Of a stretch of DNA of 64,000 bases, positions 8,426 to 59,494 are shown in pieces. A program made the translations under genes and the position numbers. Each line of letters begins with the position of its first letter. Position 1 is the stretch's first letter. This stretch comes from Paraspadella gotoi (Eukaryota; Animalia; Chaetognatha), in NCBI GenBank assembly GCA_051294375.1, contig CM119270.1, positions 12,151,676 through 12,215,675 on the forward strand. The letters run 5' to 3'. Below the pieces are notes generated by a model. That model did not search any database. It saw only the letters and a program-made list of their open reading frames with translations, and was not told the DNA's origin.

Positions 8426-8619
8426 AGTCTTCGTCGATGTTTCTTCTTCTTTTCTAGAGTCTTGATTTTTATGTGGAGAGAGATAGAGACAGAGAGAGAA
8501 AAAGAGAAGCGAAGAAAATAGGAGGAAAAAAGAAAAAGGAAAAAAAAAAGGATGGACGCGAGACGAAGGAACGAGGCAGAAGACGAGGAGAGGAAAAAAA
8601 GGGGAAGGGGAGCGAAGGA

Positions 8620-8855
8620 GGAGGAAGAGAGGAAAAAGGAAGTGGATTAAGGAAAGGAGGGAGAGAAGGGAGAGGAAGAGAGGAAAAAGGAAGGAAGTGG
8701 ATTAAGGAAAGGAGTGAGAGAAGGGAGAGGAAGAGAGGAAAAAGGAAGGAAGTGGATTAAGGAAAGGAGGGAGAGAAGGGAGAGGAAGAGAAGAAACAGG
8801 AAGGAATTGGATTAAGGAAAGGAGGGAGAGAAGGGAGAGGAAGAGAGGAAAAAGG
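8620..8855. repeat. Purine-rich minisatellite, ~55-bp unit, about 4 copies
   Basis: Repeated ggaaaggagggagagaagggagaggaagagaggaaaaaggaaggaagtggattaa; a noisy copy recurs at ~15540-15785. Confidence 0.85.
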
Positions 8856-9002
8856 AGAGTTTACTCACAAATGAAGTCAGAAGCCCACCGTTCGGGATAT
8901 ATCGTGGGAAAAAGTTTCTTTTTTCTTTTTTCTTTTTTCTTCATACCTTTCTCTTTCTTTTTCGACGTACGGAACTAGACTTTCTTATTTCTTTTTATCT
9001 TT

Positions 9003-9046
<44 letters not shown>

Positions 9047-9155
9047 TTTTTCTTTCTTTCTTTCTTTCTTTCTTTCTTTATTTCTTTCTCTCTTTTTTTT
9101 TAAAAATGTCTCTCTTTCTTCTTTCATTATCTTAAACAAATCTCGCTCTTTTCAG

Positions 9156-11886: not shown

Positions 11887-12055
11887 GACGACGAGGACGG
11901 CGACGACGAAGACGGCGACGACGACGAAAAAAAAAGAAGACGAGGGGAAAAAAAAAGAAGAAGAAGCTGGATGAAACACATTCAAAGGATCTAAGATGAG
12001 TAGGAGGGGAAAAAAGATGGATGGGATTAAGAAAGAAGATGGGGGGAAAAGGGGC

Positions 12056-12102
<47 letters not shown>

Positions 12103-12484
12103 TTTCATGCAAAGAGTCAGAGACGAAGAGACAGAGACGGACGGCCGAAGTCAGAAAGGGAAAATCGAGAGGCGACTTCGTTGGCCATTTCGTGACACGA
12201 GGCTGTAAGTTTTTGATCATTTTGGTCATTCTCGTTCTCTCTCTTTCTTTCTCTCTCTCCCTTCCTCCCTCTCTCTTTTCGTTTTCCCCATTTTTTTTCA
12301 AAGACCATAGTAAATTTAGCCAAATCATTCGTAAACATTGCCGCGGTGGAAAGATAGATATTCTTGCTTTGGAGCTTTTTTTTTCTGCTTCTTCGCTTCT
12401 TGCAGTGACTGTCACGTGGCCAAGGGAGAGATTTTATACGTTAAACAACACAACTCCTTCACAAGGAACAAATAATAAATAATT

Positions 12485-12799
12485 TCAGAGCGATTCTTCC
12501 AACTCTTTTTCGCAGGTCTCCTCGATGCTCTGGATCCGCGACGCTAAATTCTCAGATTCTCCGCCGCAAGAATTGATTCTGGAAGCGACGGAGAATCTCT
12601 GCTGCGAGTCTCTTTGCCGAGATCCGGTTCCGGTGGATCGGCGCCGGGCGGAACCCCCGCCCGAGTTCAGAGTTCCTTTCCACGGTTCCACGACGACGTA
12701 GTAGAAGGAGAAGACGAGAATCGTGATGACGGTGTCGATGGCGCAAACAGTTCCGATGTACGTGTAGAGACTCGGATAAATGTTGAGCTCAGTTCGAAC
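12485..12799 (-). CDS. XK-related domain terminal exon (last TM helix and cytoplasmic tail)
   Basis: aAG|GTT..: VRTELNIYPSLYTYIGTVCAIDTVITILVFSFYYVVVEPWKG...EKELEESL*. FYYVVVEP resembles the XKR last-helix YYxxxHP motif. Phase 0 matches the donor at 14110. Confidence 0.7.
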   Translation of the reverse strand, partial: VRTELNIYPSLYTYIGTVCAIDTVITILVFSFYYVVVEPWKGTLNSGGGSARRRSTGTGSRQRDSQQRFSVASRINSCGGESENLASRIQSIEETCEKELEESL

Positions 12800-12978
12800 C
12801 TTTGGGCAAATATGTAATCATTATGACAGTAATGCGTTCGAAGCAAAATAAACATTTTGGTTTGAACCTGGTAAGCGTGAAAGGTTGAATTGACTTTCAT
12901 GTCTGTACTTTTCAGTCGATAAATAGAAATTCCATTCGTATCGCTTTCGTACTGTAAAAAAATTGAGAATATTAGTTA

Positions 12979-13051
<73 letters not shown>

Positions 13052-16000
13052 GTTATTATCATTACTATTATTTATTTATTTATTTTCTAAATTCCATCTC
13101 CTCTCGCTCATGTACCTCCTCGAACTTCAAAGCAACTGAAATCTCTATCACCNNNNNNNNNNNNNNNNNNNNNNNNNNNNNNNNNNNNNNNNNNNNNNNN
13201 NNNNNNNNNNNNNNNNNNNNNNNNNNNNNNNNNNNNNNNNNNNNNNNNNNNNNNNNNNNNNNNNNNNNNNNNNNNNNNNNNNNNNNNNNNNNNNNNNNNN
13301 NNNNNNNNNNNNNNNNNNNNNNNNNNNNNNNNNNNNNNNNNNNNNNNNNNNNNNNNNNNNNNNNNNNNNNNNNNNNNNNNNNNNNNNNNNNNNNNNNNNN
13401 NNNNNNNNNNNNNNNNNNNNNNNNNNNNNNNNNNNNNNNNNNNNNNNNNNNNNNNNNNNNNNNNNNNNNNNNNNNNNNNNNNNNNNNNNNNNNNNNNNNN
13501 NNNNNNNNNNNNNNNNNNNNNNNNNNNNNNNNNNNNNNNNNNNNNNNNNNNNNNNNNNNNNNNNNNNNNNNNNNNNNNNNNNNNNNNNNNNNNNNNNNNN
13601 NNNNNNNNNNNNNNNNNNNNNNNNNNNNNNNNNNNNNNNNNNNNNNNNNNNNNNNNNNNNNNNNNNNNNNNNNNNNNNNNNNNNNNNNNNNNNNNNNNNN
13701 NNNNNNNNNNNNNNNNNNNNNNNNNNNNNNNNNNNNNNNNNNNNNNNNNNNNNNNNNNNNNNNNNNNNNNNNNNNNNNNNNNNNNNNNNNNNNNNNNNNN
13801 NNNNNNNNNNNNNNNNNNNNNNNNNNNNNNNNNNNNNNNNNNNNNNNNNNNNNNNNNNNNNNNNNNNNNNNNNNNNNNNNNCATTGGTATACTTAATACT
13901 TTTCCAATTTGCAGTGTCCGCTATGATCCATAATTGTTGAATTTTATTTTTTATTTTTAGTGCCATCAGTGCAATTAGTCTTGCTCAATACTCATTTATT
14001 GTTTGAATGTCATATTGTTTCAAATCGTTTTATCTTTTCATCGTCTTAACTGTCAAATTGTCTCTTTTATTTAAGAAAAAAAAAATTTCCTTTGCCACTC
14101 TGCCCTTACCAAATTCTCCATCGCGGTCGCCCACTTCGGGTCCGCGTCGTAGTAAATCCTTTTGTCTTTCAAGAACATGGTGACTCTGTTGCCGGGCATT
14201 TCGTTGCAACCTTCAGTCAGATAGAAGAAGAGAGCGATGGCGCCGAAGATGAGGAAGTTGGTGGCGGGACCGAGCAACTTCCAAACGGACAAAAGGCAAT
14301 CGGCGAAACGTCTCTTTTCTCTTTCCTTTACGTTGACCTTTTTTTTTTTGATACAGGACTTTTGATGCAAGTTAGGAATATTAAGTTCTAAAAATAGTAT
14401 TGAATAGATAGGATAGACATATTTATTACTTAAGTAAATACAAATTCTCGGGGTTAAAGATTAGACGGAGAATGAGAGTGGGGCTGCGGTTACGGCAGCG
14501 TCGGCCAAGGCGCTGCCCCTATTCGCGTGCCATCCCGGTGCTTCGTTCTGAATGGCAGGTCCGCTCTTCTTTCGCCTATTGGCGGAGAAGACTGGTGCTC
14601 GGAGCTTGCCTCGGCTCCGACCGCTTCTGCGAATGCGAGAAGGCTCGTCACGCCGCGCCGAAAGCGAGTGCCGTGGTCAAAAAGTAAATTACCACATCCT
14701 GCTCGTCCACGATACTTGCTTTCAGTACCTCTCTCTCCTTCTAAACGCTCTTAATTCCAATATTTTATTTTCTTCCGTAATCTTTATATAATTGATCCCG
14801 AGAATCCCAGTATTTCCGGGTAGTTGGGTTTTCATATTCTGGTTGTTCTATACAGATATTATTAAATTTTATACATCCAGTCGGCTTGCATTTTGAGTAT
14901 TAAAAAATCATCTTGATAAAAAAGATGGATCTTAGGGTACGTGGATGCTCGGTTTTTTTGGACGAGGAGACGTATGATGAAAAAAAAAACTAATAATGCT
15001 TTCATTTGACGGAATATAATCCTAATGTCTATCATAGATTATCTTCACGAGATTATTATCCACATGCATTAAAACTGCGATAAATATAGTTGAATCGGTT
15101 TATTTTTAGATGTACTGGAGAATATGATAATCGCGCCTTATCGAGTACTATCTAATAATAGAGAGGATAAGAAGCCGGACTGGCCGAAGGAGAACTTCGA
15201 GAACCGCGAAGACGAAAAATACGTCGTGCTCCGTTGTCGTTCCGTCGTTAAGTCTTCGCCGCACTGGCAACAGGGCCCGATTGTTTCGGTGTTTTTTTCC
15301 CGGTAAGAGTCCGATTTGAGAACTGCTTTGTCCTAGCCGCGAGTCTACGCGATTGTTGCGACGCCAGTTAGTTTTACGATCGGGAGAAGAGCTAAGTGAA
15401 GTACCGACCCGAAGAGAGGAGAAAAAGTAGAAGCGAAAGAAAATAGGGAGAAGGAAAAAGAAAAAGAAAAAAAAAAAGGATGCGACGCGAGACCGGAAGA
15501 AACGAGGCAGAGACCGAGGAGAGGGAAAAAAAAGGGGGGAAGGGGAGAGAAGGAGGAGGAAGAAGGAAAAAGGTAAGTGGATTAAGGAAAGGAGGGAGAG
15601 AAGGGAGAGGAAGAGAGGAAAAGGAGGAGTGGATTAGAGAAGCGAGTGAGAGAAGGGGAGAGGAAAGAGAGGAAAGAAGAAGTGATTAAGAAGGGGGAGA
15701 AGAAGGGAAGGAAGAGAAGAAACAGGAAAGGATTGGATTAAGGAAAGGAGGGAGAGAAGGGAGAGGAAGAGAGGAAAAAGGAGAGTTTACTCACAAATGA
15801 AGTCAGAAGCCCACCGTTCGGGATATAATCGTAGGGAAAAAGTTTTTCTTTTTTCTTTTTCTTTTTTTCTTCCAATACCTTTCTCTTTCTTTTTCGACGT
15901 ACGGATGAACTAAGACATTTCTTATTTCTTTTTATCTTTTTTTCTTTCTTCTTTCTTCTCTTTATTTCTTTCTTTCTTTCTTGCTTCTTTCTTTTCTTTC

Positions 16001-16266
16001 TTTCTTTCTTTCTCTATTGTTTTTTTTAAATGTCTCTCTTCTTTGTCTTCTTTCCTTCTTTCATTATCTTAAACAACAAATCTCGCTCTTTTCAGGGTCT
16101 TCCCCAGAAAGGTAAGAAAATCATCTTACATTCTACTATATGATATAATTCTATATCTAGCTGATATTCAGACTCATTCTCTCTTTTGCATTTTAAATTT
16201 TTCAAGACTTTTTTTTTTAGAGCAACGAACTTCGCCTTATTTTTTCGAGGCGAGAGACCCCATGTA

Positions 16267-16314
<48 letters not shown>

Positions 16315-16803
16315 TCTCTTCGTCTTCCTCTCTCCTCTCTTCTCTCATCTCTCTCTCTCTTCTCTCATCACTCTTCCAAACCCTTTGCTAATCTTTTTTT
16401 TCGTGACATTAATTCCTCCCTTCCCGAAAAGCGAGCGCTCTTCCTCATTTCCTTCCGCCTTCTTCTGCTTCTGTCGCTTTTTTTCATCTCTTTCTCTCCT
16501 CTTCTTCTTCCTGCCTCCTCCTCTCTTCTCGCCCCTCCTCCTCCTCCCTCCTTCCATACATTTCTTTTTATGCGCCTTCACTTCTCATCCACTTTCCTTT
16601 CCTTTCATCGTTCTCGTCGCCTCCCCCCCTTCCTCCCCCCACTTTCTCGGCATCCAATTCCACTCTCTTTTTTTATTTGCTCGTCGCCGACTCCACCACC
16701 GCGAGGCGGTCACACCATCTCCGCACTCTTTCTAACATTCTCCTCTCCCTCTCTGCTCAGTCTCTCTCTTTCTCTTTCTCTCTCTCTCTCTCTCTTCTCT
16801 CTT

Positions 16804-16843
<40 letters not shown>

Positions 16844-17783
16844 CTCTCCTTCCTCTCGTCTCCTTCCCCTCTCCTCTCTCCACCTCCTCGGTGAGCGAGC
16901 GAGTGGAGTAGGACCGATTGATGATGGTGTCAGCGCGGGATGACTCCGGTCTTGCAGTTTTCTTGCACCATCCGTCGGGTTCCCGTCTTCAACGCTCTTC
17001 GGCTTTTGCCAGAAGCGGATGAAGGCAACAGTTTTCTTACTTCGATGGCAGCGATGGTTTTTTCCTGAAGGGTTTACGTTTTTTTGTGGGGCCTTTTGGA
17101 AAAGGAAGTTTTTACTTCAAAGATGGTTTTGGAATCCCTGAATTTAAGCCAAAAAAATCGGACTTGTCAGTTGAAGTTACAGCATGTGAAAATACGCTGA
17201 CGAGGCGTACGTAGTCACTTATTTTGGAAAAGTATTTTAATATTTTCAGCAACTATTTTTTTTAACAACTAGAACTAAAATACACACACTTATTAGTTAT
17301 ATTATATTAGCATATTAGAGAAAATTTTCCTCTTAGTTTATTAATCGCAGAAAATAAATTTTAAAAAGAGTAATTTATTTATAAACTTTAAATATAGAAC
17401 TTTTACTCCTCGAGGATATCTTAAAAACAGCAAACCTGATGTTTATAATTTCGGTATTTTTCTTTTCACCCTCTCACACTCCCTCTCTCTCTTTCTTCTT
17501 TCTTTCTCTGCATATTTTCCCTTCATCAATGAAAAAAAAATCACAAATTTTGCCGAAAATGGTCGCTGATCGTTTTTTGGCCCCGCCTCTTTCCATCAAG
17601 ATCGAATTAGGCTTTGTTTTTTCGCAAATTTCTTCGTCTTTTTCCTTTTTTTTTTTTCTTTTTCTTTTCTTCTATTTTTTTCTTGCTTTTTTCGGCTTCT
17701 TTTTTAAATCTGAAAATGATGGAAAGACGAAGCGCGGACATGCTTTTTGAAAAGAAAGAAAGAAAGAGAAGAGAGAGAGAGAG

Positions 17784-17840
<57 letters not shown>

Positions 17841-18945
17841 CGAGAGAGAGAAGAGAGAGAGAGAAGTTAGAATCGACCAAAATGTTTTAATTGCTGGCTG
17901 GGGAGTTGGAAAGAAAGCTGGGCGAAGAGGAAAGAAAAGAGAAGGAAAGAAGAGGGGTAAGAGGTGAGAAGAAGAGAGGAAAGAAGAGAGGTGAGACGAT
18001 GAATAAAGAAGAGGAGGAAATAAGAGAGGTGAGATGGTTGAAGGAAGAAAAGAGAGGAGTACTTTTGAGGAATATAAATGACAAAAATAGATTAATTATT
18101 TTAATAAAGTAAATTCCAATCACTTTTATTCTTTATTTTTGTATTTGTTTCAAAGAAAATAACAGCATGGATGAGAAGGTAAGAATAATTTTTTTAGTCA
18201 AAGCCTCCACGCCTGATAAGACCATACATATATTGGTGTTAGCAGCCATCATTACAGGCATGTCTAAATTCTACGCGTAAAAAATGTTGGAAGAAACGGC
18301 ATGTAAAATATTTTTCAATGAAAGAGGACTAAACGAAAGAGAATAAAGTTAAAGATAAAAAGAAAGAAAAGGATCTCAGAAGAAGACTGAGATGAGGAGG
18401 AAGAGGAAGAGGAGAGGAAAAGAGGAGGAACCAAACTATTCTAATTGCATGACTTTAAAGAATCCCCTGCCTCATTTCTGGCGCAAAAGTTCATTCATGG
18501 AGCAAATGGCGGAAAATGATGGCGACGTGGCGAAGGCACGACGACAACTGAGACGACGAGGACGGCGACTACGAAGACGGCGACGACGACGAAAAAAAAA
18601 GGCACGGGAAAAAAAAGAAGAAGAAGCTGGATGAAACACATCAAAGGATCTAAAGAATGAGTAGGAGGGAAAAGATGGATGGGATTAAGAAAAGAGATGG
18701 GGGAAAAGGGGCTAGAGAGAGAGAGAAGAGAGAGAGAGAGAATATATGATTTAAATATCTCACCAGTTATATCTTAAACAGAACTACAGTTTACTCCAAG
18801 AACATCCCCATATAATACAACCAATCACACACCGGCCTCCCTGTACCTCCCAACTTTTCTTGTACTACCAAAATTTTGAACGATAAATTTGCGTAAGATC
18901 TGGAGATTTTTGAGAGAAGCAGAGAGAGAGAGAGAGAGAGAGAGC

Positions 18946-19004
<59 letters not shown>

Positions 19005-22000
19005 AGAGAGACGAGAGAGATAATTTCATGCAAAGAGTCAGAGACGCTGAAGAGACAGAGAGGACGGCCGAAGGTCAGAAAGGAAAATCGAGAGACGACT
19101 TCGTTGGCCATTTCCGTGACACGAGCTGTGAAGTTTTTGATCATTTTGGTCATGTCTCAGTTCTCTCTCTTTCTTTTTCTCTCTCTCTTCCTCCCTTTCT
19201 CTTTCGTTTTCCCCATTTTTTTTCAAAGACCATAGTAAATTTAGACCAAATCATTCGTAAAACATGCCGTGGTGGAAAGATAGATTATACTTGCTTTGGA
19301 GCTTTTTTTCTGCTTCTTCGCTTCTTGTGCAGTGACTGTCACGTGGCCAAGGGAGAGATTTTTATACGTTAAACAACACAACCCTTCACAAGGAACAAAT
19401 AATATAAATTCAGAGCGCGATTCTTCCAACTCTTTTTTCGCAGTCTCCTCGATGCTCTGGAGTACGCGGACGCTAAATTCTCAGATTCTCCGCCGCAAGA
19501 AATTGATTCTGGAAGCGACGGAGATCTCTGCTCGCAGTCTCTTTGCCGAGATCCGGTCCGGTGGATCCGGCGCCGGCGAACCCCGCCCAGTTCAAGTTCT
19601 TCCACGGTTTCACCGACGACGTAGTAGAGGAGAAGACGAGCTCGTGATGACGGTGGTCCGATGCGAAACAGTTTCCAAGTTACGTGTAGAGACTCGGATA
19701 AATGTTGAGCTCAGTTCGACCTTGGGCAATATGGATCATTATGACAGTATGCGTTCGAAGCAAAATAAACATTTTGGTTTGAACCTGGTAACGCGTGAAG
19801 TTGAATTGATTTCATGTCTGTACTTTTCAGCGATAAATAGAAATTTCCATTCGTATCGCTCTTCGTACTGTCAAAAAATTGAGAATATTTTAAAGTATTA
19901 TTATTATTATTATTATATTATTATTATATTATTATTATTATTTATTTATTATTATGATTATATTATTATATTATTACCGTATTATTGATTACTATATTTA
20001 TTCATTTATTTTCTTAAATTCCATCCTCTCTCGCTATTGTACTCCACAAACTTGCGAAGCACTGAAATCTCTATCACCAAAGGCATCTAACCTTTTCCTT
20101 TCCTTTGGTAATTCCAATAATTTTTTTAATCTGGTACTTAATGCCTTTCCTGTTTATGATCAGTCTAAAAAAAAAAAATTGACAATTTCTGTCTATGCTT
20201 AAAAAACCAGGCAATGGCCTAGTATAAAATGTTAGGTACCATATGATAAGTATTTACTCGTCGATCTTTCATTTGCCAAGTTATCGTCTATGACTAAAAA
20301 AATTGCCAATGCCTAGAGTAAATTTTAGGAACCATAAATGATAATATTTACTCCTCAAATTTTCATTGGTATATTCATACTTTTCCATTTGCAGTGTCCG
20401 CGTATGATCCTTAATTGTTGAATTTTGTTTTTTATTTAGTGCATCAGTGCAATTACGTCTTGCTTCAATACTCATTTATTGTTTTGAATGTCATATTGTT
20501 TCAAATCGTTTTATCTTTTCATCGTCTTCCTGTCAAATTGTCTCTTTATTTCAGAAATAAAAATTTTCCTTGCCACTCTGCCCTTACCAATTCTCCATCG
20601 CCGGTCGCCCCTACGGGTCCGCGTCGTAGTAAAGTCCTTTTGTCTTCAAGAACATGGTGATCGTTTGCCGGCATTTCGCTTGCAGACCTTCAGCTCAGAT
20701 AGCAGAAGAGAGCGCATGGCGCCGAAGATGAGGAAGTTGGTGGCGGACCGAGCAACTTCCAAACGGACAAAAGGCAATCGGCGAAACGTCTCTCTCTCCT
20801 ATCCTTTACTTGACCTTTTTTTTTTTTATACAGGACTTTGTAAGGCAGTTAGAATTAAGTTCCAAAATAGTATTGAATAGATAAGGATAGACATATTTAT
20901 TACTTAATAAAATACAAATTCTCGGGTTAAAGAATTAGACCGAGAATGAGAGAAGAAGCGAGAGAGAGAGAGAGAGAGAGATGAGAGAAGAGAGAGGAGA
21001 GAAGAGAGAGAGAGAGAAGAGGGAGTGAGAGAGAGAACTGTCCTGATGACAGTTAAAAGTAAGAAGGCGAGGGGTTCTACTTTTTCCTTTTTCCCTTCGA
21101 CCCCCATTATTTAATTCCATCCCCCTTCTCCTTCCCTACCCCTTTTCAACCCTTGCACCTCGACGGTAATGAGCGCACGATATACGAAAGACGACGANNN
21201 NNNNNNNNNNNNNNNNNNNNNNGACGACGAAGGCGACTCCGATGCAGACGTGAAGAGCTCTTGTTTCGAAAGCGGCGGCCAACCCGACGGCCAAGTAGGA
21301 GGATAAGTAAACAGCGCTGATGATGCTGAACAAGTTGTAGACCAAGAAACCCGCGTAGGTGACCCCCTTCGTCCCGAGTCTCCGAAAGCTTTCCAGATGG
21401 CGCAACTTGCTGAAGGTGTTGCGCTGAACGATCCCCAGCGCCATGTTGACGAACGTGGTGGCGAGTTGAATGACGGGCATGATGACGGTTACCTTGTGTC
21501 TCTCCACCGATTGGCTGCAATCGGCGATGAAGCAACGGAATCCCGGTGGCGCCAATTGGCGGTGGATGTTGCGCAGGCAGTTGCGACCGCCGACCGCCTC
21601 CCAGGGGGCCTGGCAGAGGCGGGGACTAAGAGCCAAGCCGCCGTCCTCGTCGGCCTCGTAGAAGAGGGCGGTGGATGGGAAGGGCTGCCCGGTCAGGGTG
21701 GAGATGTCGGGCAGGAAGAGAGTCTTTTGCCCGATGCTGATGGAGAGGATGCTCATGTTGAGTAGGGATTGGCCAACGCCTATAATCAGAAAGGAAAGGA
21801 ATTATGTTAGATTTATTAAACACTATTGATGCATTATTGAAAATATTATTAAAAACTCATCAAATGTTTACTATTGTGCATACGTTATGGATATGTACTT
21901 ACTAATTTACTCTCAAAAAGTTAACAAGTGTTAAAAATAAATTCTAATTAAACTAAATTATAGTTTATACAGCTTAAACTAACTTGCCTCTCACCTTCGA

Positions 22001-25000
22001 AAAGGATTTCGAAAAGGACGAATCGGTCCAAGATTCTTTTCTTCTTCGTGAATTTGATTCTGTCGAGGGCGACTCGATTCACGGATTTTCTCATCTCTTC
22101 TTCGGACATATCACACGTCTGTCATTTTGGTAAGGGTGGATATTTTCTGGGGCTCAATTACCTCTTTCTTTTTATTGAACTCAACATTGCTCACAGTTTT
22201 TCGGCCTCAAATTGGCTTTTGTTTTTTTAGGGCTAAATTCGCCTAATTTTACGGGGAAGCTTGGCCTTTTTTTTNNNNNNNNNNNNNNNNNNNNNNNNNN
22301 NNNNNNNNNNNNNNNNNNNNNNNNNNNNNNNNNNNNNNNNNNNNNNNNNNNNNNNNNNNNNNNNNNNNNNNNNNNNNNNNNNNNNNNNNNNNNNNNNNNN
22401 NNNNNNNNNNNNNNNNNNNNNNNNNNNNNNNNNNNNNNNNNNNNNNNNNNNNNNNNNNNNNNNNNNNNNNNNNNNNNNNNNNNNNNNNNNNTTTTGTCTA
22501 AGATTTCCAAAAAACTTCAATTGAAAACAAACCATATAATCGAAAATTGTTAACTTAAATCCTACAAGTCAAATCCAGAGCATCTTCCTCGAGTCCTTTT
22601 CTACGATCACACGTTCTTAACATTTTTAATCCTCTCGCCCGCTCCCGAGAAAATAAACACCCCTTGTGCTTCCACAGGGCAAACTCGTCCAATAGGTTGT
22701 CCACGATCAAGATGATGGGACCCAAATTGAAGAAGAACATCATGAGATAAGCGAACTTGAGTTTGGAACTGCCGAAGATGCGCGGGTAGAGGCGCTCCTC
22801 GTTGAGGAAGAGCTTGACGCCGAGGTAGAAGGCGACTGAGGCGGAGAGCAAAAGGAAGGCGAGAGTGAGCAAGCACCACAGCAATTCCCCGTGGTAGAGA
22901 TAGAGGGCGGCGCTGCTGATGTCGGAGAGGACGTCGCAAGTGTAGGTGGTCAGAGTCACGGCAGAGTAGAAGTAGATGAGTAAGAGTTCCACTCGGTTCT
23001 TCACTGCGGTCAAACTGTTCTTTCTCTGGGACAACCTTGAAGGAGGGAGAAAAGTGAGACGGATGAATAGAACTCATTTGATTTTTTTTTTTTATTGAAA
23101 TGTGTATTACGCATGGATGGAGGAACGATAGAATGAATTAAGTAATTAATGAATTTTCAAATAAATATTCAGTAAATCCATCACACTCATAAATCAATTA
23201 ATTAATCGAACAGAAGCGCGTAAGGAAGGTTAAAAAATGTAAATATAAATTTTTATAAGTAATAATAATTAGGCATTATTGTAATTATTTAATTGAAATT
23301 TTTGCAATGAACGATTTTAAATATTATAAAACTCTTGCTCACTCTTACTCCAAAACTTTGGTTGTGGCGGTATATTACACCGCCTCACCTCATTTTGGCT
23401 CAGAGGGGGAACGCACCATCCCAAGCTTTAAGTTCCATTCCACAGTCCTGACGAATTCCTTCTGACAGAGGATCTGTGTTGGCAAAAGCGAGACCGTCCT
23501 TGGGTAACCGCGCCAGTGACATGAGCGGTCACGCCTAAATCTAACAGTGAGATGCCCGATCCCAATGAGCATCACAGGCCACCCAGATGTTGCCATATGA
23601 TCGTCATTTTATATCATTAACTAACATATTCTTCAGCCTTAACTGTCTTCCGTCGCTCCAGTCGCTCGTCAACCGACCCACGCAAACGTAATGCATCTTC
23701 CTCCTCTTCCTCCTCTCATAGAGAACCAAGAGCGGAAAGACGACGACGTAGAAAATTAAACAAAAGGCGATCGTCAACAATTGAACGTCGATTTTGGTGC
23801 AGACCAAGAAATTGGCGTGGACGAGGGCGCCGGCGGCGTTGACGCAGGAGAACGCCTTCACCCTGGCGTACTGCGCCTCGAACTCGATCCTGTCGCCGCT
23901 CCGCCGGATTCCGTCGATAAAGTAGGCGGTGCCGACGCCGGTTTCGTTACGGCGCCGACAGGGATTTTCGACGCTTTCGCCGGCGTAGACTCGTTGCACC
24001 TGATGGCAGACGGAGGGCGCTTCGATCTCGTTGACTGACGTCCAGATGGCGGGACGAGTTGAGTCGCGTCGGACGCAGCGGTAGCGGTCCTCGCCGTTCA
24101 AGTGAAAACCCTCGCGGCACGAGACGACGCAGGTCGAACCGGTCGGGCTCGTCGGGCAGCCGATGCCGTCCCTCAAAAAGAGACGCGGGCAATCCTGGCA
24201 GACGAGGCGCGGTGGCGAAGAGTCACTGGCGCGACGCCATTGACCGACGATGCCAGCGTGCTCCTTGACGCAACGCAAGGACACGTTGGCGTTGATGGCG
24301 TGGGAATCGAAACAAGATGGCGCACATGTGGAGTCGATGGAGGCGTGGGGACAGCCGACGCCGTTGGGGAGATGGAAGGGAGGACAATCCCAGCAGTGAG
24401 TTAAGGGTTGGGGATTAGGGAAGGTCAGAGTGGAGTTGATTGTCAGGTCGATTAGTTCAATATCGTCGTAGTTAACGTGGATATCGTCGTCGACATCAAA
24501 AGTAAAATCATTACGAGTTCTTCCTCCGCTTCTGCCGCTGTTGTTGTTGTTGACATTGTTGTTGTCGTCTTTTGGAATCCACCAGCCTAATTCTTCCTTT
24601 AAGGGTTTGACGCAGACGTAAGCTTTGACTCCGTCCATCACGAAGCCATCTCGACAAGCCACTCGACACTTCGAGCCTTCGTCGGAGAAGCCACACCCGA
24701 TTCCGTCGACAAAATCGAGGGTGGGGCAATCGAAGCAGCGCGGCGTCTCGCCGTCTTCGTCGCGCCATCTTCCGTGCGCAAAAGCAATAGCCACGCCCAC
24801 AGACGCCAACCTGTCGTCCCTCGCGCATCTCAGTTTTCCTTTTCTGTCGATCACGTGACTGGCGTCGCATCGCGGCGCGCAAGTCTCATCGACTCTTCCG
24901 AAACCGCAGCCTTTGCCGTGGCGGAGTACGAAAGGCGGACAATCCAGACACCTAAAAAACCGATCAACCTATATATCGCAGTTTTAAATGCTGATACGTA

Positions 25001-28000
25001 AGTTATAATTTACATAATATCCCGTCAAATGACAAAGTTTTTTTTATCAATTAATTCCAAAAGGTATAAAGATTTTTTTAGTTTTTTAAGCAAAGTATTC
25101 AATAATATCTGGGTTGGATCAATTTTAAAATTCAATAATATTTGATTAATTTAAAATTCGAACAATTCTGCCGTTAATCTACTTTTTCCACGCACTCGCT
25201 TTCGGCCGGCGTGACGCCTTCTCCATTCCACGTCCCGAGCAGATAGGCCACCGTCTTCTCGCAAACGAAAGAGCGCCTGCCATTCAGAACGAAGCCGGGA
25301 TGGCACGCAATGGTGCAGCCTTGGCCGACGCTGCCGTAACCGCAGCCCCGCCCGTTGAAGACCTCGACTGCGGGGCAGTCCAGGCACGCCACTCGTCCGT
25401 CCACTGGATTCCATCTGGACGAAGCAGCCGCGTATCTGTTGCAGAAGGCGACGGATGATCCGTTCAGGACGAACGCGGCGTCGCAGCGCAGTTGGCAGCG
25501 GTCGCCAGCGTCGCCGTAGGGACAAACGCTGCCGTTGGGCAAAGAGAATACGTCGCAGTCGCGGCAACGGCTGTCGCGGGGGCGGCTGTTGCTGCGGCGG
25601 CTGTTGCTGGAGTGCGAAGAAAAGTTGGCCCAGTGGCCAGGGAGGCATTCGAAGGAGCTCTCGCCTTGGAAAGGAGGAAGTCATTTTATTATATAATATT
25701 AAAATATATTAATTTATTATATTATTATTTTGATTGTAGAGCGAGAAAATAAGGAAAGAAAAAAAAATGAAAGAAAGATAAAAAGAAAGAAAGAAAGAAA
25801 GAAAAAAAGAAAGAAAGAAGAGAGAGAGATAGGGATATCCCTGACTTTAAATTGGTAAACCTTCCTTTAATCAATAATAATCGCATCACTAAGCAGTAAG
25901 CAAGTACGTAAGCAAGTAAGCAAGCAAGTAAGCAAGCATACCTTGCAAAACAAGGCCTTCATCGCAGGACAAGAAGCAAAGTTGGCCTCGATCGCCAAAG
26001 CCGCAGCCCTGCCCTCTCGCCAATTCGACGGCGGGACAGTCCATGCACGCGCTCTCCCTTCCGATCCACGAGCTGGACTTGGAGTGGACGTCGCGATGGC
26101 AAACTCGCTGATCACCACCCTTGAGGTGGTAATTTGAGGCGCATCTCAAGTGGCAGACATCGTTGGCGTTGGCGAAAGGGCAACGGAGTCCACCTCTTTG
26201 GCGGAATTCGGGACAGTCCCAACAGCTAAAATAAATGATTAATGTGGATGTTGAAGAGACAGTAATTATTGTTGCGTCTCTCAGTGAATGTTGTTGTTGG
26301 TGGAAAGTTCGTCACCAAGTGAGGCATGTCGCCTGATGTTGTTGTGGGCGGAAAGTGCATCCGCCAGGTTGAGGCATGTCGCCTGAAAGTGTTGTTGTTG
26401 CTGTTGTGTTCGGAAGTCGGGCTCACCAATGAAGAGACAGTAATTATTGTTATGTGTAAGTGACAGAACCGTTTAATATAAGCAGTCCCTGAGCTTCGGA
26501 TCAGGCTGTAACATCGTGTTACAGGCGGATTAAGCGCCCCGTCCCTCTTAACTGCCGAGACGACCACCGGGCTAGAACCCCGGACCTTTGGTTGGGAGGC
26601 GAATGACTTGCCTCCGGCACCAATGGCCCTGATGGAATGCGGTTGGTGGATTTTAGTCCACCATAATGTTAAAATATATTCAAAATATGTTTAAAATAGA
26701 TTTAAAATATATTTAAAATATATTTAAAATATATTTAAAACACCCTTACTTTAAAAAAAACAATTTTTTTTTTCAAAATACAATTTTAATTATATTTATA
26801 ATTTCTGATACAACATTCATCGTCATGTCACAATACCTGCTCTCGACGCCTGCTTCTCCGATCCACCGTCCGTTTCTGCACGTGATATCCGGACTGCCCT
26901 CCAGGTGCAATCCCTCTCGACAATCGACACGACAGGTCTGACCGTTGATTCCCATTTCGCAACCGCGCCCTGCCCCTTGGGGACTCCAATCCAGACAATC
27001 CGCTGTGGTGAGTCGACGCGGTGTTAAATATGACAACATTAGTAGGTCCTACCGCAGTTTATTTTTATTTAACCAAGAATTTTTTATGCATCGTTTCGCC
27101 GATTCGAAGTCTTTGAAAGCGCAGTTCAATCAATTTACAGAACCAGTGTGGCGGTATATTCACACCGCCTCACGTCCACCATCCGTCAGCCAAATCCATT
27201 GGCTCAGAGGGGGAACACACCATCCCAGGCGTAGTGTTCCATCCACAGTCCTAACGACTTCCCTCTGCGTTGGCAAAGCGAGACCGTCCTAGGGTAACCG
27301 CGCCAGTGACTGGAGGCGTCACTGAGGGTCGGAAGCCCCCAAAGCCAACAGTGAGATGCCCCATCCCAATGGGCATCACAGGCAACCCGGATGTTGCCAT
27401 ACCAGCTTATTTAGAAACGATATATAGCTTGAAGACAGCAATATCCACCCATTTAACCAACGATAACTCACCACTCCACATTTTGATTCCCGCGATGACG
27501 AGCTTCTTGTTCACGTTGCCGTAAGAGTTGACGCCCCTCACGTCGTCCACGTGAATTCCGTAGCAATAAAACGGTCGCCGGTTGTAGATGTTGGCGCCGA
27601 TCTCGCCCCCGGGTACTTTGGGGAAGTGACAGTCGTCTTCTTCGGAAAGGATCGTCCACTTGGAGGGATCGAGATCCTCGGCGTCGGTTCCGATTACTTG
27701 AAAACTGGGGAGAGACCGGTCGGGGCATGGGAAATTTCGAAGAGGAAGTTCTTGTTTGGATGCAGTATTACAAAGAAGCAGCTTCGATTTTTCATCTGCG
27801 GAATAGTTTCCATTCCAAATGCAGATCTTACGTTCTGGGTCCAACGTAATAATTGGAATAGATGGCCAGGCGGACGACGATGATCCTTTCCTCGAAGCAG
27901 AAGAGAATCGTCTCGTCGAAGTCGCTTGTCGACGCGGATACAGTCGTCGTGGTAATGCGGGATTTCCATTCCGGACCGGTGAAGGCGTTCAAAGGGGAAT

Positions 28001-29318
28001 ACCTTAAAGAGGCTCCTGGTTTGGTTCATCGATTTTAATTCTCTTCTCAATTTCTCGGAAATGAACAACAGAAATCTACAGACCTCCGATTTATAATGAA
28101 TGGTGAATGATACAGTAGAATGGATATATGTAGTCGGGCATAGCAAAGTTCACCCCGCCTATAAGCATGACACCTTCACTAATGAACCGGTGGCTCATTG
28201 AGTAAAGCCATCAGCTCATGACCACTAGCTACCGGGTTCAATCCCAACCCGGTACCTACCCTGCGGGAAACGTCAGGACGGCCGTAAACCACCTCGGGGG
28301 CGTGGAAAACCCTCAAGCCTGGTTCCATGGCCAGGACCCGTTCCATGGCTGCTAGAGGGGTTAAAGAAGTTGCGGATAGTCATCTTCAGCCCATTTAGCG
28401 CTTTATCCACTTATTAAATTAACTCCATGACTTAATCTATCATCACTCTCATACGCTTTTAACCGATTCGTTTTTACTGACGATGTTTTTGTGAGTTAAA
28501 AAATCCTAAATTAACAATTTAATTCACAATGTAAAAACTTTTGCTAGTATCCATACGATGGCTCGTGAGTAGAGAGATGTGAACATGATAAAATTTTTGA
28601 AAATTAAAATTTAGCAAATAAAACATGAATATAAAAACCATTAAAAATACTTTGTTAAAAGAAAATATAATTCTTTTTTAAAAATGTTTTCATTAAATTG
28701 GTCAAAAATGTAAAAAACTATATTTAAGATGCCGATTTTTAATTTGCAGTTTAAAAATATAGTTTTTTATAATTTTTGACATAATTTTTGAAAAAGTTTT
28801 ATATTTTCTTGTATCAACTTTTAACGAGGAATCTGAATCAGTTCTCGAGAATTAAAAAAAAAATTGGAAATTTAAACGTTATATAAGGGTAGTAACTATA
28901 TCAAAATAAGCTGACTGGGCTACTATATTTGTAAAAAAAGAAAAATAATTAGAGATTAGTATTCATTAATATGATAGTTTTCAAGATATAACTGCTAAAT
29001 TTTTGATTCCAAACTTTCACTTCACCCTACTCGTGAGAGGTGGTGATGGCTTTGCCTCGCGCCGTTTGAAAGTCGATCAAGGTGGCGCCATTCGGAGGAG
29101 AGTTGTCGTAGTTGTTACAGAACTCCCAGAAGGCGCCGTCTTGGAAAAAACATACTAGGACTATAAAATTATTCATTTATTCATTTTAACACACTAAATT
29201 AGTGCGATATTAATATTAATATATTTATTCGTTATCGTTTAAATTCGTCAAAATCACCTACTATAAAGCTGGACAAACTGATTAATTGAAGAAAGTAGAA
29301 TACCGTGAGAACTATCAT
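12485..29318 (-). CDS. Multi-exon gene span: signal peptide + discoidin/F5-8C-like domain + 9 Sushi/CCP modules + TM, putatively fused to an XK-related multi-pass domain
   Basis: Exons 29318-29258, 29160-29031, 28002-27832, 27704-27472, 27002-26837, 26225-25942, 25664-25196 and 24951-23626 all join with GT-AG and matching phases (about 947 codons). They are followed by 23035-22566, 22118-21995, 21779-~21160, 14358-14110 and 12799-12485. Junctions near the gaps and the duplicated block are unresolved. Confidence 0.65.
14110..14358 (-). CDS. XK-related domain internal exon
   Basis: SCIKKKKVNVKEREKRRFADCLLSVWKLLGPATNFLIFGAIALFFYLTEGC...WATAMENL|GTAAGG; 249 nt with a hydrophobic helix and a strong donor. 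Confidence 0.6.
14480..14690 (+). repeat. Error-rich inverted copy of part of a Sushi exon (25180-25350)
   Basis: gggctgcggttacggcagcgtcggccaagg...gtcacgccgcgccgaaagcgagtgc matches the reverse complement of 25180-25350 with many indels. Confidence 0.85.
15190..20951. repeat. Indel-rich direct duplicate of ~8350-14478 (probable assembly artefact)
   Basis: Colinear match throughout (9150 vs 16090, 10258 vs 16938, 12485 vs 19409, 14110 vs 20589) with scattered 1-nt indels that frameshift the XK exon copies. Confidence 0.9.
21223..21779 (-). CDS. XK-related domain exon (runs into a 25-N gap)
   Basis: tatAG|GC: (G)VGQSLLNMSILS...PVIQLATTFVNMALGIV...YAGFLVYNLFSIISAVYLSSYLAVGLAAAFETRALHVCIGVAFVV; several TM-like segments. 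Confidence 0.75.
21995..22118 (-). CDS. XK-related domain exon
   Basis: cAG|TCDMSEEEMRKSVNRVALDRIKFTKKKRILDRFVLFEILFEG|GTGAGA. Spliced to the next exon it gives LFEILFEGVGQSLLN, equivalent to the XKR LFExFLESxPQLxLQ motif. Confidence 0.75.
22566..23035 (-). CDS. XK-related domain first exon (TM1-TM2 region)
   Basis: ELLLIYFYSAVTLTTYTCDVLSDISSAALYLYHGELLWCLLTLAFLL...FFFNLGPII matches the XKR N-terminal DxxxD..Y..G..W..LTL pattern. The 3' donor (T|GTAGGA at 22565) is tentative. Confidence 0.8.
23365..23596. repeat. Hairpin-rich interspersed repeat, copy 1 (intronic)
   Basis: Shares gtggcggtata..caccgcctcac, ggctcagagggggaac, gcgagaccgtcct.gggtaaccgcgccagtgac and aacagtgagatgccc..gatgttgccata with 27147-27401. 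Confidence 0.85.
23626..24951 (-). CDS. Exon encoding Sushi/CCP modules 6-9, juxtamembrane region, TM helix and basic stop-transfer
   Basis: ttttAG|G CLDCPPF..., repeated CxDCP..GxGC..C...C..G..LxG....C...W, then VQLLTIAFCLIFYVVVFPLLVLY-ERRKRRK. Donor AT|GTTAGT at 23625, or read-through to a stop at 23604. Confidence 0.9.
25196..25664 (-). CDS. Sushi/CCP exon (end of module 3, modules 4-5)
   Basis: ccaAG|GC ESSFECLPGHW...CRDCDVFSLPNGSVCPYG...CLDCPAVEVFNGRGCGYG...PAES GA|GTGCGT. Confidence 0.88.
25942..26225 (-). CDS. Sushi/CCP exon (module 2, start of module 3)
   Basis: tttAG|C CWDCPEFRQRGGLRCPFANANDVCHLRC...CMDCPAVELARGQGCGFG...SCDEGLVLQ G|GTATGC. Confidence 0.88.
26470..26629 (-). mobile_element. 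tRNA-derived SINE-like element (intronic)
   Basis: The minus strand gggccattggtgccggaggcaagtcattcgcctcccaaccaaaggtccggggttctagcccggtggtc has A-box-like and B-box-like (GGTTCTAGCCC) motifs at tRNA spacing, followed by a non-tRNA body with hairpins. Confidence 0.5.
26837..27002 (-). CDS. Sushi/CCP exon (module 1)
   Basis: cacAG|CG DCLDWSPQGAGRGCEMGINGQTCRVDCREGLHLEGSPDITCRNGRWIGEAGVES AG|GTATTG. Confidence 0.85.
27147..27401. repeat. Hairpin-rich interspersed repeat, copy 2 (intronic)
   Basis: Homologous to 23365-23596; contains about six short inverted repeats. Confidence 0.85.
27472..27704 (-). CDS. Discoidin/F5-8C-like domain exon (C-terminal half)
   Basis: ccccAG|T FQVIGTDAEDLDPSKWTILSEEDDCHFP...RRPFYCYGIHV...LVIAGIKMWS G|GTGAGT. 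Confidence 0.8.
27832..28002 (-). CDS. Discoidin/F5-8C-like domain exon (N-terminal half)
   Basis: tttaAG|G YSPLNAFTGPEWKS...ILFCFEERIIVVRLAIYSNYYVGPR AC|GTAAGA; phases fit both neighbours. Confidence 0.75.
28185..28370 (+). mobile_element. tRNA-derived SINE-like element (intronic)
   Basis: A box TGGCTCATTGAG (28191) and B box GGTTCAATCCC (28235), followed by a GC-rich body in AT-rich intron; no clean cloverleaf. Confidence 0.55.
29031..29160 (-). CDS. Exon 2 of the Sushi-XK gene
   Basis: ttttatAG|TC LVCFFQDGAFWEFCNNYDNSPPNGATLIDFQTARGKAITTSH GA|GTAGGG; GC-rich island with phase 1 in and phase 2 out. Confidence 0.7.
29258..29318 (-). CDS. Putative first coding exon (signal peptide)
   Basis: ATG at 29318: MIVLTVFYFLQLISLSSFIV G|GTGATT; hydrophobic, and phase 1 matches the next exon. 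Confidence 0.55.
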
Positions 29319-31949: not shown

Positions 31950-32379
31950 AAGTTAAAAAAAATAACACGTGTATTGAAACAGTCACGCCGTAGGGTGGAA
32001 AGTTAACTGGAAGCTTTGCAACGCGACCCGTCACCTCGATTTAAACACGGTGGTACAGGTATACGGGCTTCAGAAAATCATCTTGTCATCATCTTACACA
32101 GCACAGTACAGTTACAACATCGAATTCCGGTTTGGGACTGAAATTCGTAACAGTGAAAAAAATTGAGGGAGGGGGAAACGAATGAGAAAAAGATTTATCA
32201 CAAGCCTAGATGTTGCACAGTGAAGCATCACAGGGTAGGGAAAAACCAGAGCGGGAAACTTAAAAGTTGGTTGGGATTTAAATTTAGAAGCAACTCGATT
32301 CTGGGACTGGATGAACATTTTATTTCCAAAAAGCAATTTTAATTAAAGGAAGAGATAGATAAAAAAGAAGAAACGGGAG

Positions 32380-32457
<78 letters not shown>

Positions 32458-32502
32458 GCAATTTTAAATGTAAAGGAAGAGATAGATAAAGAAAGATAGA
32501 AA

Positions 32503-32542
<40 letters not shown>

Positions 32543-32546
32543 GAGA

Positions 32547-32583
<37 letters not shown>

Positions 32584-32816
32584 GAGAGAGAGAAGAGAGA
32601 GAGAGGACCATGAAGCATGCTGGTTCAATGGTCATAATCACGATGTCCTATAAAGATTTTAAAAAAAACGATCTCAGAGAACTAGGGAAAGAAATTAATA
32701 CAAAAAAGATAAAAATTTCGTAGAGGAAAACAAACAAAGTTTCTTGTTGAATGAAAATATCCGTCGTGTCGTCGGTCGTCGTCGTCGTTCGTCGTCGTCG
32801 TCGTCGTCGTCGTCGT

Positions 32817-32859
<43 letters not shown>

Positions 32860-33270
32860 GGTCGCTCTCGTCTGACGGTCCATGTTTCATCTTGACCGGA
32901 ATTTTGGAGACGTTCGAGCGCCAACGCTCTGCAGAGCGAGACGACCCTGAACAATGGCTCTTCTCCAACAAAACTGCCACAAAGACTTCCACTTCCTGTT
33001 TCTAAACCCCGCTCCATCAGCCCATCACACTCCCCCGACGACCTCATCCACAGCATCCAATTCCCGCGAACGCCGCTTCGCATGATTCCATCCGCATTCC
33101 ATCACGCCATGGCGCCGACCAATCGGGTTCGTCGAGAAGATGAGCGTTCATCGTCATCGAGGGGTGAGCGCCGTATGATCCCAATCGCCGGCGCCGTCGA
33201 CGACCGAAAAAGACGCCGGGCGAAACGAACGACGACGATGGCGGAGGAACGGGCGGCGCCCGTGACGTCG
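31950..33270. repeat. Tandem near-duplicate of 33296-34453 (GATA stop codon and 3' UTR) across a 25-N gap
   Basis: Both start agttaaaaaaa.ataacacgtgtattgaaacagtcacg and are colinear to tcatcgtcatcgaggg, with scattered indels. Confidence 0.9.
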
Positions 33271-33744
33271 NNNNNNNNNNNNNNNNNNNNNNNNNAGTTA
33301 AAAAAAGATAACACGTGTATTGAAACAGTCACGCCCGTAGGGTGGAAAGTTAACTGAAGCTTGCACGCGACCTCACCCGATTTAACACGGTGGTACAGGT
33401 ATACGGGCTTCAGAAAATCATCTGTCATCATCTTACAAGCACAGTAGTTTTAACATCGAATTCCGGTTTGGACTGAAATTCGTAACAGTGAAAAAAATAT
33501 TGAGGGAGGGGGAAACGAATGAGAAAAAGATTTATCACCAAGCCTTAGATGTTGCACAGTGATAAGCATCACAGGGGTAGGGAAAACAGAAGCGGGAAAC
33601 TTAAAGTTGGGTGTGGGGATTTAAATTTAGAAGCAACTCGCTGGGACTGGATGAACATATTTATTTCACAAAAAGCCAATTTAATTAAAGGAAGAGATAG
33701 ATAAAAAAGATAGAACAGGGAGAGAGAGAGAGAGGAAGAGAGAG

Positions 33745-33791
<47 letters not shown>

Positions 33792-33898
33792 AGAGGAGAG
33801 GCAATTTTAAATGTAAAGGAAGAGATAGATAAAGAAAGATAGAAACAGAGAGAAAGAGAGAGAGAGAGAGAGGAGAGAGAGAGATGAGAGAAGAGAGT

Positions 33899-33935
<37 letters not shown>

Positions 33936-34106
33936 AGAAGAGAGAGAGAGGACCATCGAAGCATGCTGGTCAATGGTCATATCACCGATGTCCTATAAAG
34001 ATTTAAAAAAACGATCTCAGAGAAACTAGGGGAAAGAATTATAAAAAAAGAAATAATAAATTTCGTAGGAAAACAACAAAGTTTTCTTGTTGAATGAAAA
34101 TATCCG

Positions 34107-34159
<53 letters not shown>

Positions 34160-34390
34160 GTCGCTCTCGTCTGACGGTCCATGTTTCATCTTGACGGAAT
34201 TTTGGAGACGTTCGACGCCAACCTCTGCAGAGCGAGACGACCCTGACAATGGCTCTTCTCCAACAAAACTCCACAAAGACTTCCACTTCCTGTTTCTAAA
34301 CCCCGCTCCATCAGCCCATCACACTCCCCGACGCCACTCCATCACACCATCCAATTCCCCGACGCCGCTCCATGATTCCATCCCATTCCA

Positions 34391-59494
<25,104 letters not shown>

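Follow-up and report, generated by a model that had tools for sequence, protein, structure and literature searches.

A 64,000-nt stretch of the genome of the chaetognath Paraspadella gotoi (contig CM119270.1, positions 12,151,676 to 12,215,675), here called the window, carries an intron-containing animal gene on the minus strand. Joined together, eleven exons between 29318 and 21223 give a stop-free reading frame of 1291 codons. Another pair of exons, near 20835-20588 and 19720-19470, bears insertions and deletions (indels) and would extend the protein to about 1,480 residues. The best overall explanation, with a probability of roughly 0.7, is that this is one spliced gene whose surface protein joins an arm of Sushi repeats, a predicted immunoglobulin-like (Ig-like) domain and a membrane helix to an XK-related domain. 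A preliminary description of this DNA had reported that the exons for a Sushi ectodomain are in phase with an XK exon, with no stop between them, and this observation is confirmed. The single-chain architecture is supported by a clean gene model, by a relative (P0002) that has both parts in one open reading frame (ORF), and by RNA-type contigs that use the acceptor of the XK exon. The XK-related family itself is known; the combination of an XK domain with Sushi repeats and an Ig-like domain plus helix appears to be undescribed. No XK domain fused to an ectodomain was found in the literature, judged by titles and the openings of abstracts, and automated annotations of such proteins may exist.

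Gene Structure and the Proposed Exon 8-9 Junction

All ten junctions of the 11-exon model are phase-compatible. GT..AG ends are present at nine of the ten introns, the exception being the donor at 22662, which reads GG. The features of the gene, all on the minus strand, are as follows.

29258-29318, minus: exon 1, with the start codon and a hydrophobic stretch resembling a signal peptide (residues 2-20, hydropathy 2.2)
29031-29139, minus: exon 2, N-terminal ectodomain; AG/GT ends, phase 1 to 2
27832-28002, minus: exon 3, first half of a beta-rich domain; in frame
27472-27704, minus: exon 4, second half of the same beta-rich domain; in frame
26837-27002, minus: exon 5, the first Sushi repeat (24.5 bits against Pfam Sushi, E 3.8e-5)
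25942-26225, minus: exon 6, Sushi 2 and most of Sushi 3 (Pfam Sushi match); spliced to exon 7 in sequencing run X1
25196-25664, minus: exon 7, Sushi 4 and 5 after the last part of Sushi 3 (Pfam Sushi E 3.6e-8); putative 3' donor at 25195
24003-24951, minus: exon 8, first part, Sushi 6-9 and an Asn/Asp-rich spacer (Pfam Sushi E 5.1e-6; leave-one-out profiles)
23793-24002, minus: exon 8, predicted Ig-like beta-sandwich next to the membrane (structure model)
23697-23780, minus: exon 8, the one membrane helix and, after it, a basic stretch (hydropathy 2.84; helix at pLDDT about 90)
23626-23696, minus: end of exon 8, cytoplasmic linker running to a phase-2 donor; 23643 and 23673 are further donors in frame
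23036-23625, minus: putative intron 8-9, 590 nt, GT..AG ends; contains the high-copy repeat 23395-23597
22663-23035, minus: exon 9, XK-related helices 1-3 with the XKR8 D26, D30 and W45 positions (Pfam PF09815)
21995-22118, minus: exon 10, XK helix that includes the positions of XKR8 E137 and E141; aligns to P0001
21159-21779, minus: exon 11, a loop containing Cys plus additional hydrophobic segments, with a gap of 25 N near the end (BLASTP to P0001 E 3e-8)
20588-20835, minus: exon 12 (approximate ends), further XK segments; frame-shifted here, open in the duplicate near 14107-14358
19470-19720, minus: exon 13 (approximate ends), the C-terminal tail and the last of the hydrophobic segments; reading frame uncertain

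The key junction is that between exons 8 and 9. It holds as first described, with exon 8 ending at 23626, a GT donor at 23625 (GTTAGT), an AG before 23035, phase 2 at both ends, an intron of 590 nt and no stop across the joint. The donor matches three of the four consensus positions, which is equal to or better than eight of the other nine donors scored. Phase compatibility alone is weak evidence, because three of the 11 GT sites in 23760-23590 join the XK frame. The XK exon was also said to lack an in-frame ATG before its first membrane helix. Indeed, no in-frame Met occurs from the stop upstream in the intron through XK helices 1-3, and exon 9 therefore needs an upstream coding exon. On all the evidence, it is likely that exons 8 and 9 are spliced into one chain.

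The intervening DNA fits what had been proposed, being a putative intron with GT..AG ends that contains a high-copy repeat (23395-23597). A second copy of this repeat lies in intron 4 (27199-27401); the two are 76% alike and each follows shortly after a splice donor of the gene. A spliced leader ending in ATG was considered as a start for the XK exon and was rejected, since translation from its ATG would read exon 9 in a wrong frame. Among the aAG acceptors said to recur in this gene, that at 12799 is not an independent example, because it falls within the second copy of 15413-20952, which is rich in indels and most likely stems from a duplication in the assembly.

The XK-Related Domain and Its Relatives

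Exon 9 matches the XK-related Pfam family PF09815 with 35.8 bits (E 5.7e-9, model positions 2-105; curated cut-off 24.8 bits), and its top matches in the ESM Atlas are XK clusters (0.94-0.95). The earlier placement of the multi-pass region in this family is thereby upheld. Exons 10-11 alone gave no Pfam XK match and the duplicate copy of exon 12 gave no Pfam match. Exons 10-11 can be aligned to a relative, P0001 (BLASTP E 3e-8; none of 2000 shuffles reaches the score), and the later XK exons are tied to the family solely via this protein, whose own Pfam XK match spans model positions 5-149. A Cys-containing loop is common to P0001 and the window's domain. Hydrophobic segments are found in exons 9 and 11-13; the family has eight membrane helices in two related repeats, and the 3' exons of the window are frame-damaged.

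This branch of the family has barely been sampled. A phmmer search with the XK exon against 1.84 billion representative proteins returned two matches, P0001 and P0002, both from short ENA contigs, and the best XK relatives are 32-39% identical to the window's domain. By profile the domain is a family member and falls in a divergent XK-related subfamily; identity as an XKR8-type scramblase is not implied by this. The window's ORFs are themselves absent from the protein collection searched. Scans of JGI metagenomes gave no relative. Word-index searches for longer homologues found none among 571 candidates with the XK exon, by a method that missed the in-range P0001 and P0002, and none among 7993 candidates (511-2000 aa) with a three-sequence XK alignment, which is likewise insensitive.

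P0001 begins just before its XK domain and is uninformative on the upstream architecture. P0002 has about 170 residues ahead of XK in a single ORF, and these contain, in the same order as in the window, a predicted Ig-like segment, a hydrophobic helix and a basic stretch, followed by XK helices 1-3. A single local alignment to P0002 is collinear from the window's predicted Ig-like segment to the XK domain and spans the proposed junction. From the end of the helix to the DxxxD motif there are 56 residues in P0002 vs 65 in the window. An Atlas model of P0002 residues 20-113 gave PKD/Ig-like clusters in all ten listed rows, at template modelling (TM) scores of 0.47-0.59, all under the bar set for naming a fold; an Atlas feature search with residues 20-145 gave no usable match. 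Because of its order, spacing and predicted fold, P0002 is the best support for one chain.

The Ectodomain

The ectodomain comprises about 870 residues with nine Sushi repeats, the number originally counted. Pfam PF00084 (Sushi) is above its cut-off in four exon pieces (three of one set of eight, one of another set of eight), the repeated Cys/Trp pattern of Sushi/CCP domains is present, and hidden Markov models (HMMs) built from the other eight recovered each of the nine repeats (E <=3e-12, one-sequence search). A PDB sequence search with the Sushi exon found nothing, and an insensitive word-index search for its longer homologues found none among 2785 candidates. Between Sushi 7 and 8 lies a low-complexity Asn/Asp-rich spacer of about 55 residues (window positions around 24570-24420, minus strand). 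Part of Sushi exon 7 is also present as an inverted copy (14480-14691 vs 25175-25349, 78% identical), possibly a paralogue fragment or an assembly remnant.

The preliminary description had called the N-terminal domain of exons 3-4 discoidin-like. This label was not confirmed, since no relevant match was found in Pfam, NCBIfam or the PDB when the exons, over which the domain is split, were searched as separate pieces. We take the discoidin-like look to be a resemblance to the discoidin consensus. The Sushi and XK parts of the original domain list stand, and a predicted Ig-like domain outside the membrane helix had been overlooked. Selectin- and SVEP1-type Sushi (CCP) surface proteins have a short cytoplasmic tail or are secreted. 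Like them, the window's protein has a row of Sushi repeats, most of which contain six cysteines, that follows an N-terminal globular domain and is carried on one membrane helix; it differs in that its N-terminal domain matched no family.

The domain next to the membrane is predicted to be Ig-like. The roughly 70 residues between Sushi 9 and the membrane helix were modelled as a beta-sandwich at a predicted local distance difference test (pLDDT) value of 65.8, with P0002 as the only alignment partner, and the strands are also present in a poor single-sequence model of exon 8 (pLDDT 34.8). The Foldseek neighbours are mostly Ig-superfamily domains, with basigin-2 and embigin chains within the top 20 rows (all E>0.1), and VIA comparison gave Ig-like sandwiches (best Z 5.2, root-mean-square deviation 2.5, 68 aligned). 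The term Ig-like is a prediction, because no Foldseek neighbour reaches E<=0.001 and the VIA Z is below the level taken as specific. A sequence search gave no basigin match to the window's segment. In basigin a Glu (E230) stands at the cytoplasmic end of the helix; a Glu follows the membrane helix in the window as well, and P0002 has none there.

Functional Positions of XKR8

Six charged residues of XKR8 (D26, D30, K/R134, E137, E141, and R183) are described in PMC8500837 as needed for scrambling, and W45 as gating it. An acidic cluster is given as a hallmark of the XK-related family in PMC8298096. The window's residues were mapped via P0001 to XKR8 and XKR9. In these alignments, which are weak (E 0.09 and 0.33) and have the Glu-bearing stretch below threshold, five of the six XKR8 positions covered (the charged ones up to E141, and W45) are kept: D26, D30, W45, E137, and E141. 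All four acidic positions (D26, D30, E137, E141) are kept, as model residues D974, D978, E1101, and E1105. W993 is at the W45 position; as in 7dce, 15 residues separate it from the equivalent of D30. Both relatives retain DxxxD and the Trp, and the motif of exon 10 has Gly where XKR8 and XKR9 have Pro. The chances that the XK domain scrambles lipids are about even.

Contig Evidence and Alternative Explanations

Contigs of X1, the only sequencing run of those compared that contains the gene, were aligned over 22495-26690; exons 1-5 and 10-13 are outside this region. The run, assembled as Logan contigs, contains 0.49 of the sampled words and is guessed to be RNA, none of the runs listed being recorded as RNA. 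Exon 6 is spliced to exon 7 in its contig 6 (depth 7.02, junction 25941-25663), and the 194 letters of this contig beyond the compared region correspond, by arithmetic only, to exon 5 plus 30 nt of exon 4. Contig 1 (1683 nt, depth 7.27) begins exactly at 23035 and runs as far as 22663 with no mismatch; all XK exons together (about 1560 nt) plus a short remainder would give a contig of this length. Because the contig starts exactly there, and because depth is 0 over the unique part of the intron (23055-23334), 23035 behaves as a used acceptor. After 22663 the contig departs from the genome, where the intron would begin with GG; either this is a non-canonical donor or the assembly has a homopolymer error. 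Depth in X1 is very high at the repeat 23395-23597 and at a further repeat within 26275-26690. In runs X2 and X3 the only matches were short and of low complexity.

If the contigs come from a de Bruijn graph with k=31, one that starts exactly at the acceptor must have two different preceding bases, one of them not G. Only the exon 8 donors at 23625 and 23643, among five upstream options, end in a base other than G; unspliced RNA, the 23673 donor and a candidate mini exon all end in G. This argument modestly favors exon 8 as the upstream partner, and the start at the acceptor hints at more than one upstream form.

Several points weigh against the proposed protein or its proposed activity. No X1 contig crosses 23626-23035 among those aligned, with 1 joint and 127 loose ends beyond those listed. 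The bin 22915-23054 has a depth of 6.28, which is contig 1 alone, although a side of only 21 nt is counted elsewhere in the same table. The missing junction contig is no refutation, because not all joints are among those listed and exon 8 is covered by X1 only in short pieces of low depth. The one-chain interpretation of the preliminary description therefore stands on the gene model, P0002 and the use of the acceptor, and lacks its discoidin part and a junction seen in contigs. The similarity of the Ig-like segment and helix to P0002 is weak (BLASTP E 0.06), its score being reached by 16 of 2000 shuffles for the whole of exon 8, by 1 of 2000 for the last 150 residues and by 438 of 2000 with the helix removed. 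P0002 is also a fragment that shows no Sushi repeats and is too short to show them. As it was the sole alignment partner, the Ig-like model is not fully independent of it. The position of K134 is Val in the window and Cys in P0001, with an Arg two residues earlier. No convincing caspase-type DxxD was found in the tail in six frame-by-copy readings, both copies being indel-bearing. Lastly, purified XKR9 is described in PMC8298096 as showing no scrambling in vitro, in liposomes, and no basigin binding, and so family membership is no proof of activity.

The missing junction would also be expected if two genes lay side by side here, one for a single-pass Sushi receptor that terminates at the 23604 stop and the other for XK alone, starting from a first exon of its own. 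Eight ATG-to-donor candidates occur in the intron, and one of them, with its ATG at 23393 and a phase-2 donor at 23388, has a good donor (three of four consensus positions, the best of the eight) and could be such a mini first exon. There are AATAAA-type signals at 23293 and 23096, and a 3' end or a first exon is possible within the repeat region, where X1 is saturated. However, the mini exon is at the edge of the high-copy repeat, and no joint from it is among those listed. Depth is 0 over 23055-23334, where a 3' untranslated region ending at the AATAAA-type signals would lie. Reading a few codons beyond the donor to a stop is also seen in exons 2, 3, and 7, and P0002 has both parts in one ORF. 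Two genes are accordingly considered improbable.

Slightly less probable still is one locus with mixed products, in which the fusion, possibly as a minor form, accompanies shorter forms, either receptor-only or XK-only from an internal start such as Met917 or a Met created by the junction. More than one upstream partner is suggested by the contig breaking exactly at the acceptor, and exon 8 has three in-frame donors and in-frame Mets in its linker. However, no alternative joint is among those listed, and two donors close together, or a small number of unspliced molecules, would also account for the break.

That unrelated contigs were joined by the assembly between the Sushi and XK exons is very hard to credit. 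The scaffold is error-prone, with 10 N gaps and indel-rich duplications, and this too counts against the fusion. However, there is no gap between 22492 and 33270, the ends of the junction are canonical and agree in phase, and P0002 independently has the same order.

The fusion could also be real and its XK domain not a scramblase; the domain might instead give an adhesion or immune receptor its scaffold or a platform for adaptors. The absence of K134, the Gly in exon 10 in place of the Pro of XKR8/XKR9, the lack of a readable caspase-type site and the inactivity of XKR9 in liposomes, as given in PMC8298096, are in keeping with such a role. Against it, the window retains the four acidic residues of the lipid path and the Trp of the gate, and both relatives keep DxxxD and the Trp. 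This role appears unlikely, though less so than the two-gene arrangement.

Comparison with Known Systems and Proposed Mechanism

The closest comparison is with the XKR8-basigin/neuroplastin complex (PDB 7DCE), which, as described in PMC8500837, likewise has a multi-pass domain of the XK family with a single-pass helix bearing Ig domains. In the window both parts are apparently in one chain, whereas the partner of XKR8 comes from a separate gene. The window further differs in its ectodomain of about 870 residues with nine Sushi repeats, in having no basigin sequence match and in not keeping K134. PMC8500837 also states that the basigin helix packs on helix 9 of XKR8 and is needed for surface delivery, one Ig domain being sufficient; this contact corresponds to the damaged 3' exons of the window. 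With the XK-related family at large (XK, XKR4, XKR8, XKR9, and CED-8) the window shares a Pfam match over the N-terminal third and the acidic cluster, as described in PMC8298096, where XKR9 is given as a 43-kDa monomer. It differs in its Cys-containing loop, its N-terminal ectodomain and one extra helix.

The proposed product would be a surface protein of about 1,480 residues in which a signal peptide, nine Sushi repeats, an Ig-like domain and one membrane helix lead to an XK domain inside the cell. The Ig-like domain and helix would serve as the XK domain's own partner for surface delivery. This suggestion is tentative: the module may be a built-in counterpart of basigin or neuroplastin that brings the XK domain to the surface and stabilizes it. 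The Sushi arm would bind a ligand or a neighboring cell and so localize or gate lipid exposure. Binding to this arm or clustering via it might localize or switch on phosphatidylserine exposure, which is doubtful at present. The XKR scramblases described in PMC8500837 and PMC8298096 are switched on from inside the cell, by caspase cleavage or phosphorylation. A somewhat more doubtful extension is that an animal lineage possesses a ligand-gated scramblase, with a basigin-like Ig-helix built in, in which binding outside and not caspase cleavage would trigger phosphatidylserine exposure.

If this extension holds, it would be a natural Rosetta-stone fusion of an XKR and its accessory subunit. A natural chain of Ig-helix, Sushi repeats and XK would let one ask whether a tethered partner helix can replace basigin, and also whether an outside signal can gate an XKR.

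Surroundings of the Gene

A gap-flanked second copy of 15413-20952 lies at 8491-14478. It is 88-91% identical with many indels, includes the last two XK exons and is most likely an assembly duplication. There is a similar duplication at 31951-33163 vs 33296-34453. Upstream on the same strand is a gene of the GATA1/2/3 zinc-finger type (51001, 48065, and 34955, minus strand) with two zinc-finger exons, the type being assigned by eye. An ORF on the plus strand at 1990-2382 has a CCHC zinc-knuckle-like motif, also seen by eye, which suggests a retrotransposon gag remnant. A tandem repeat array is present at 56481-56942.
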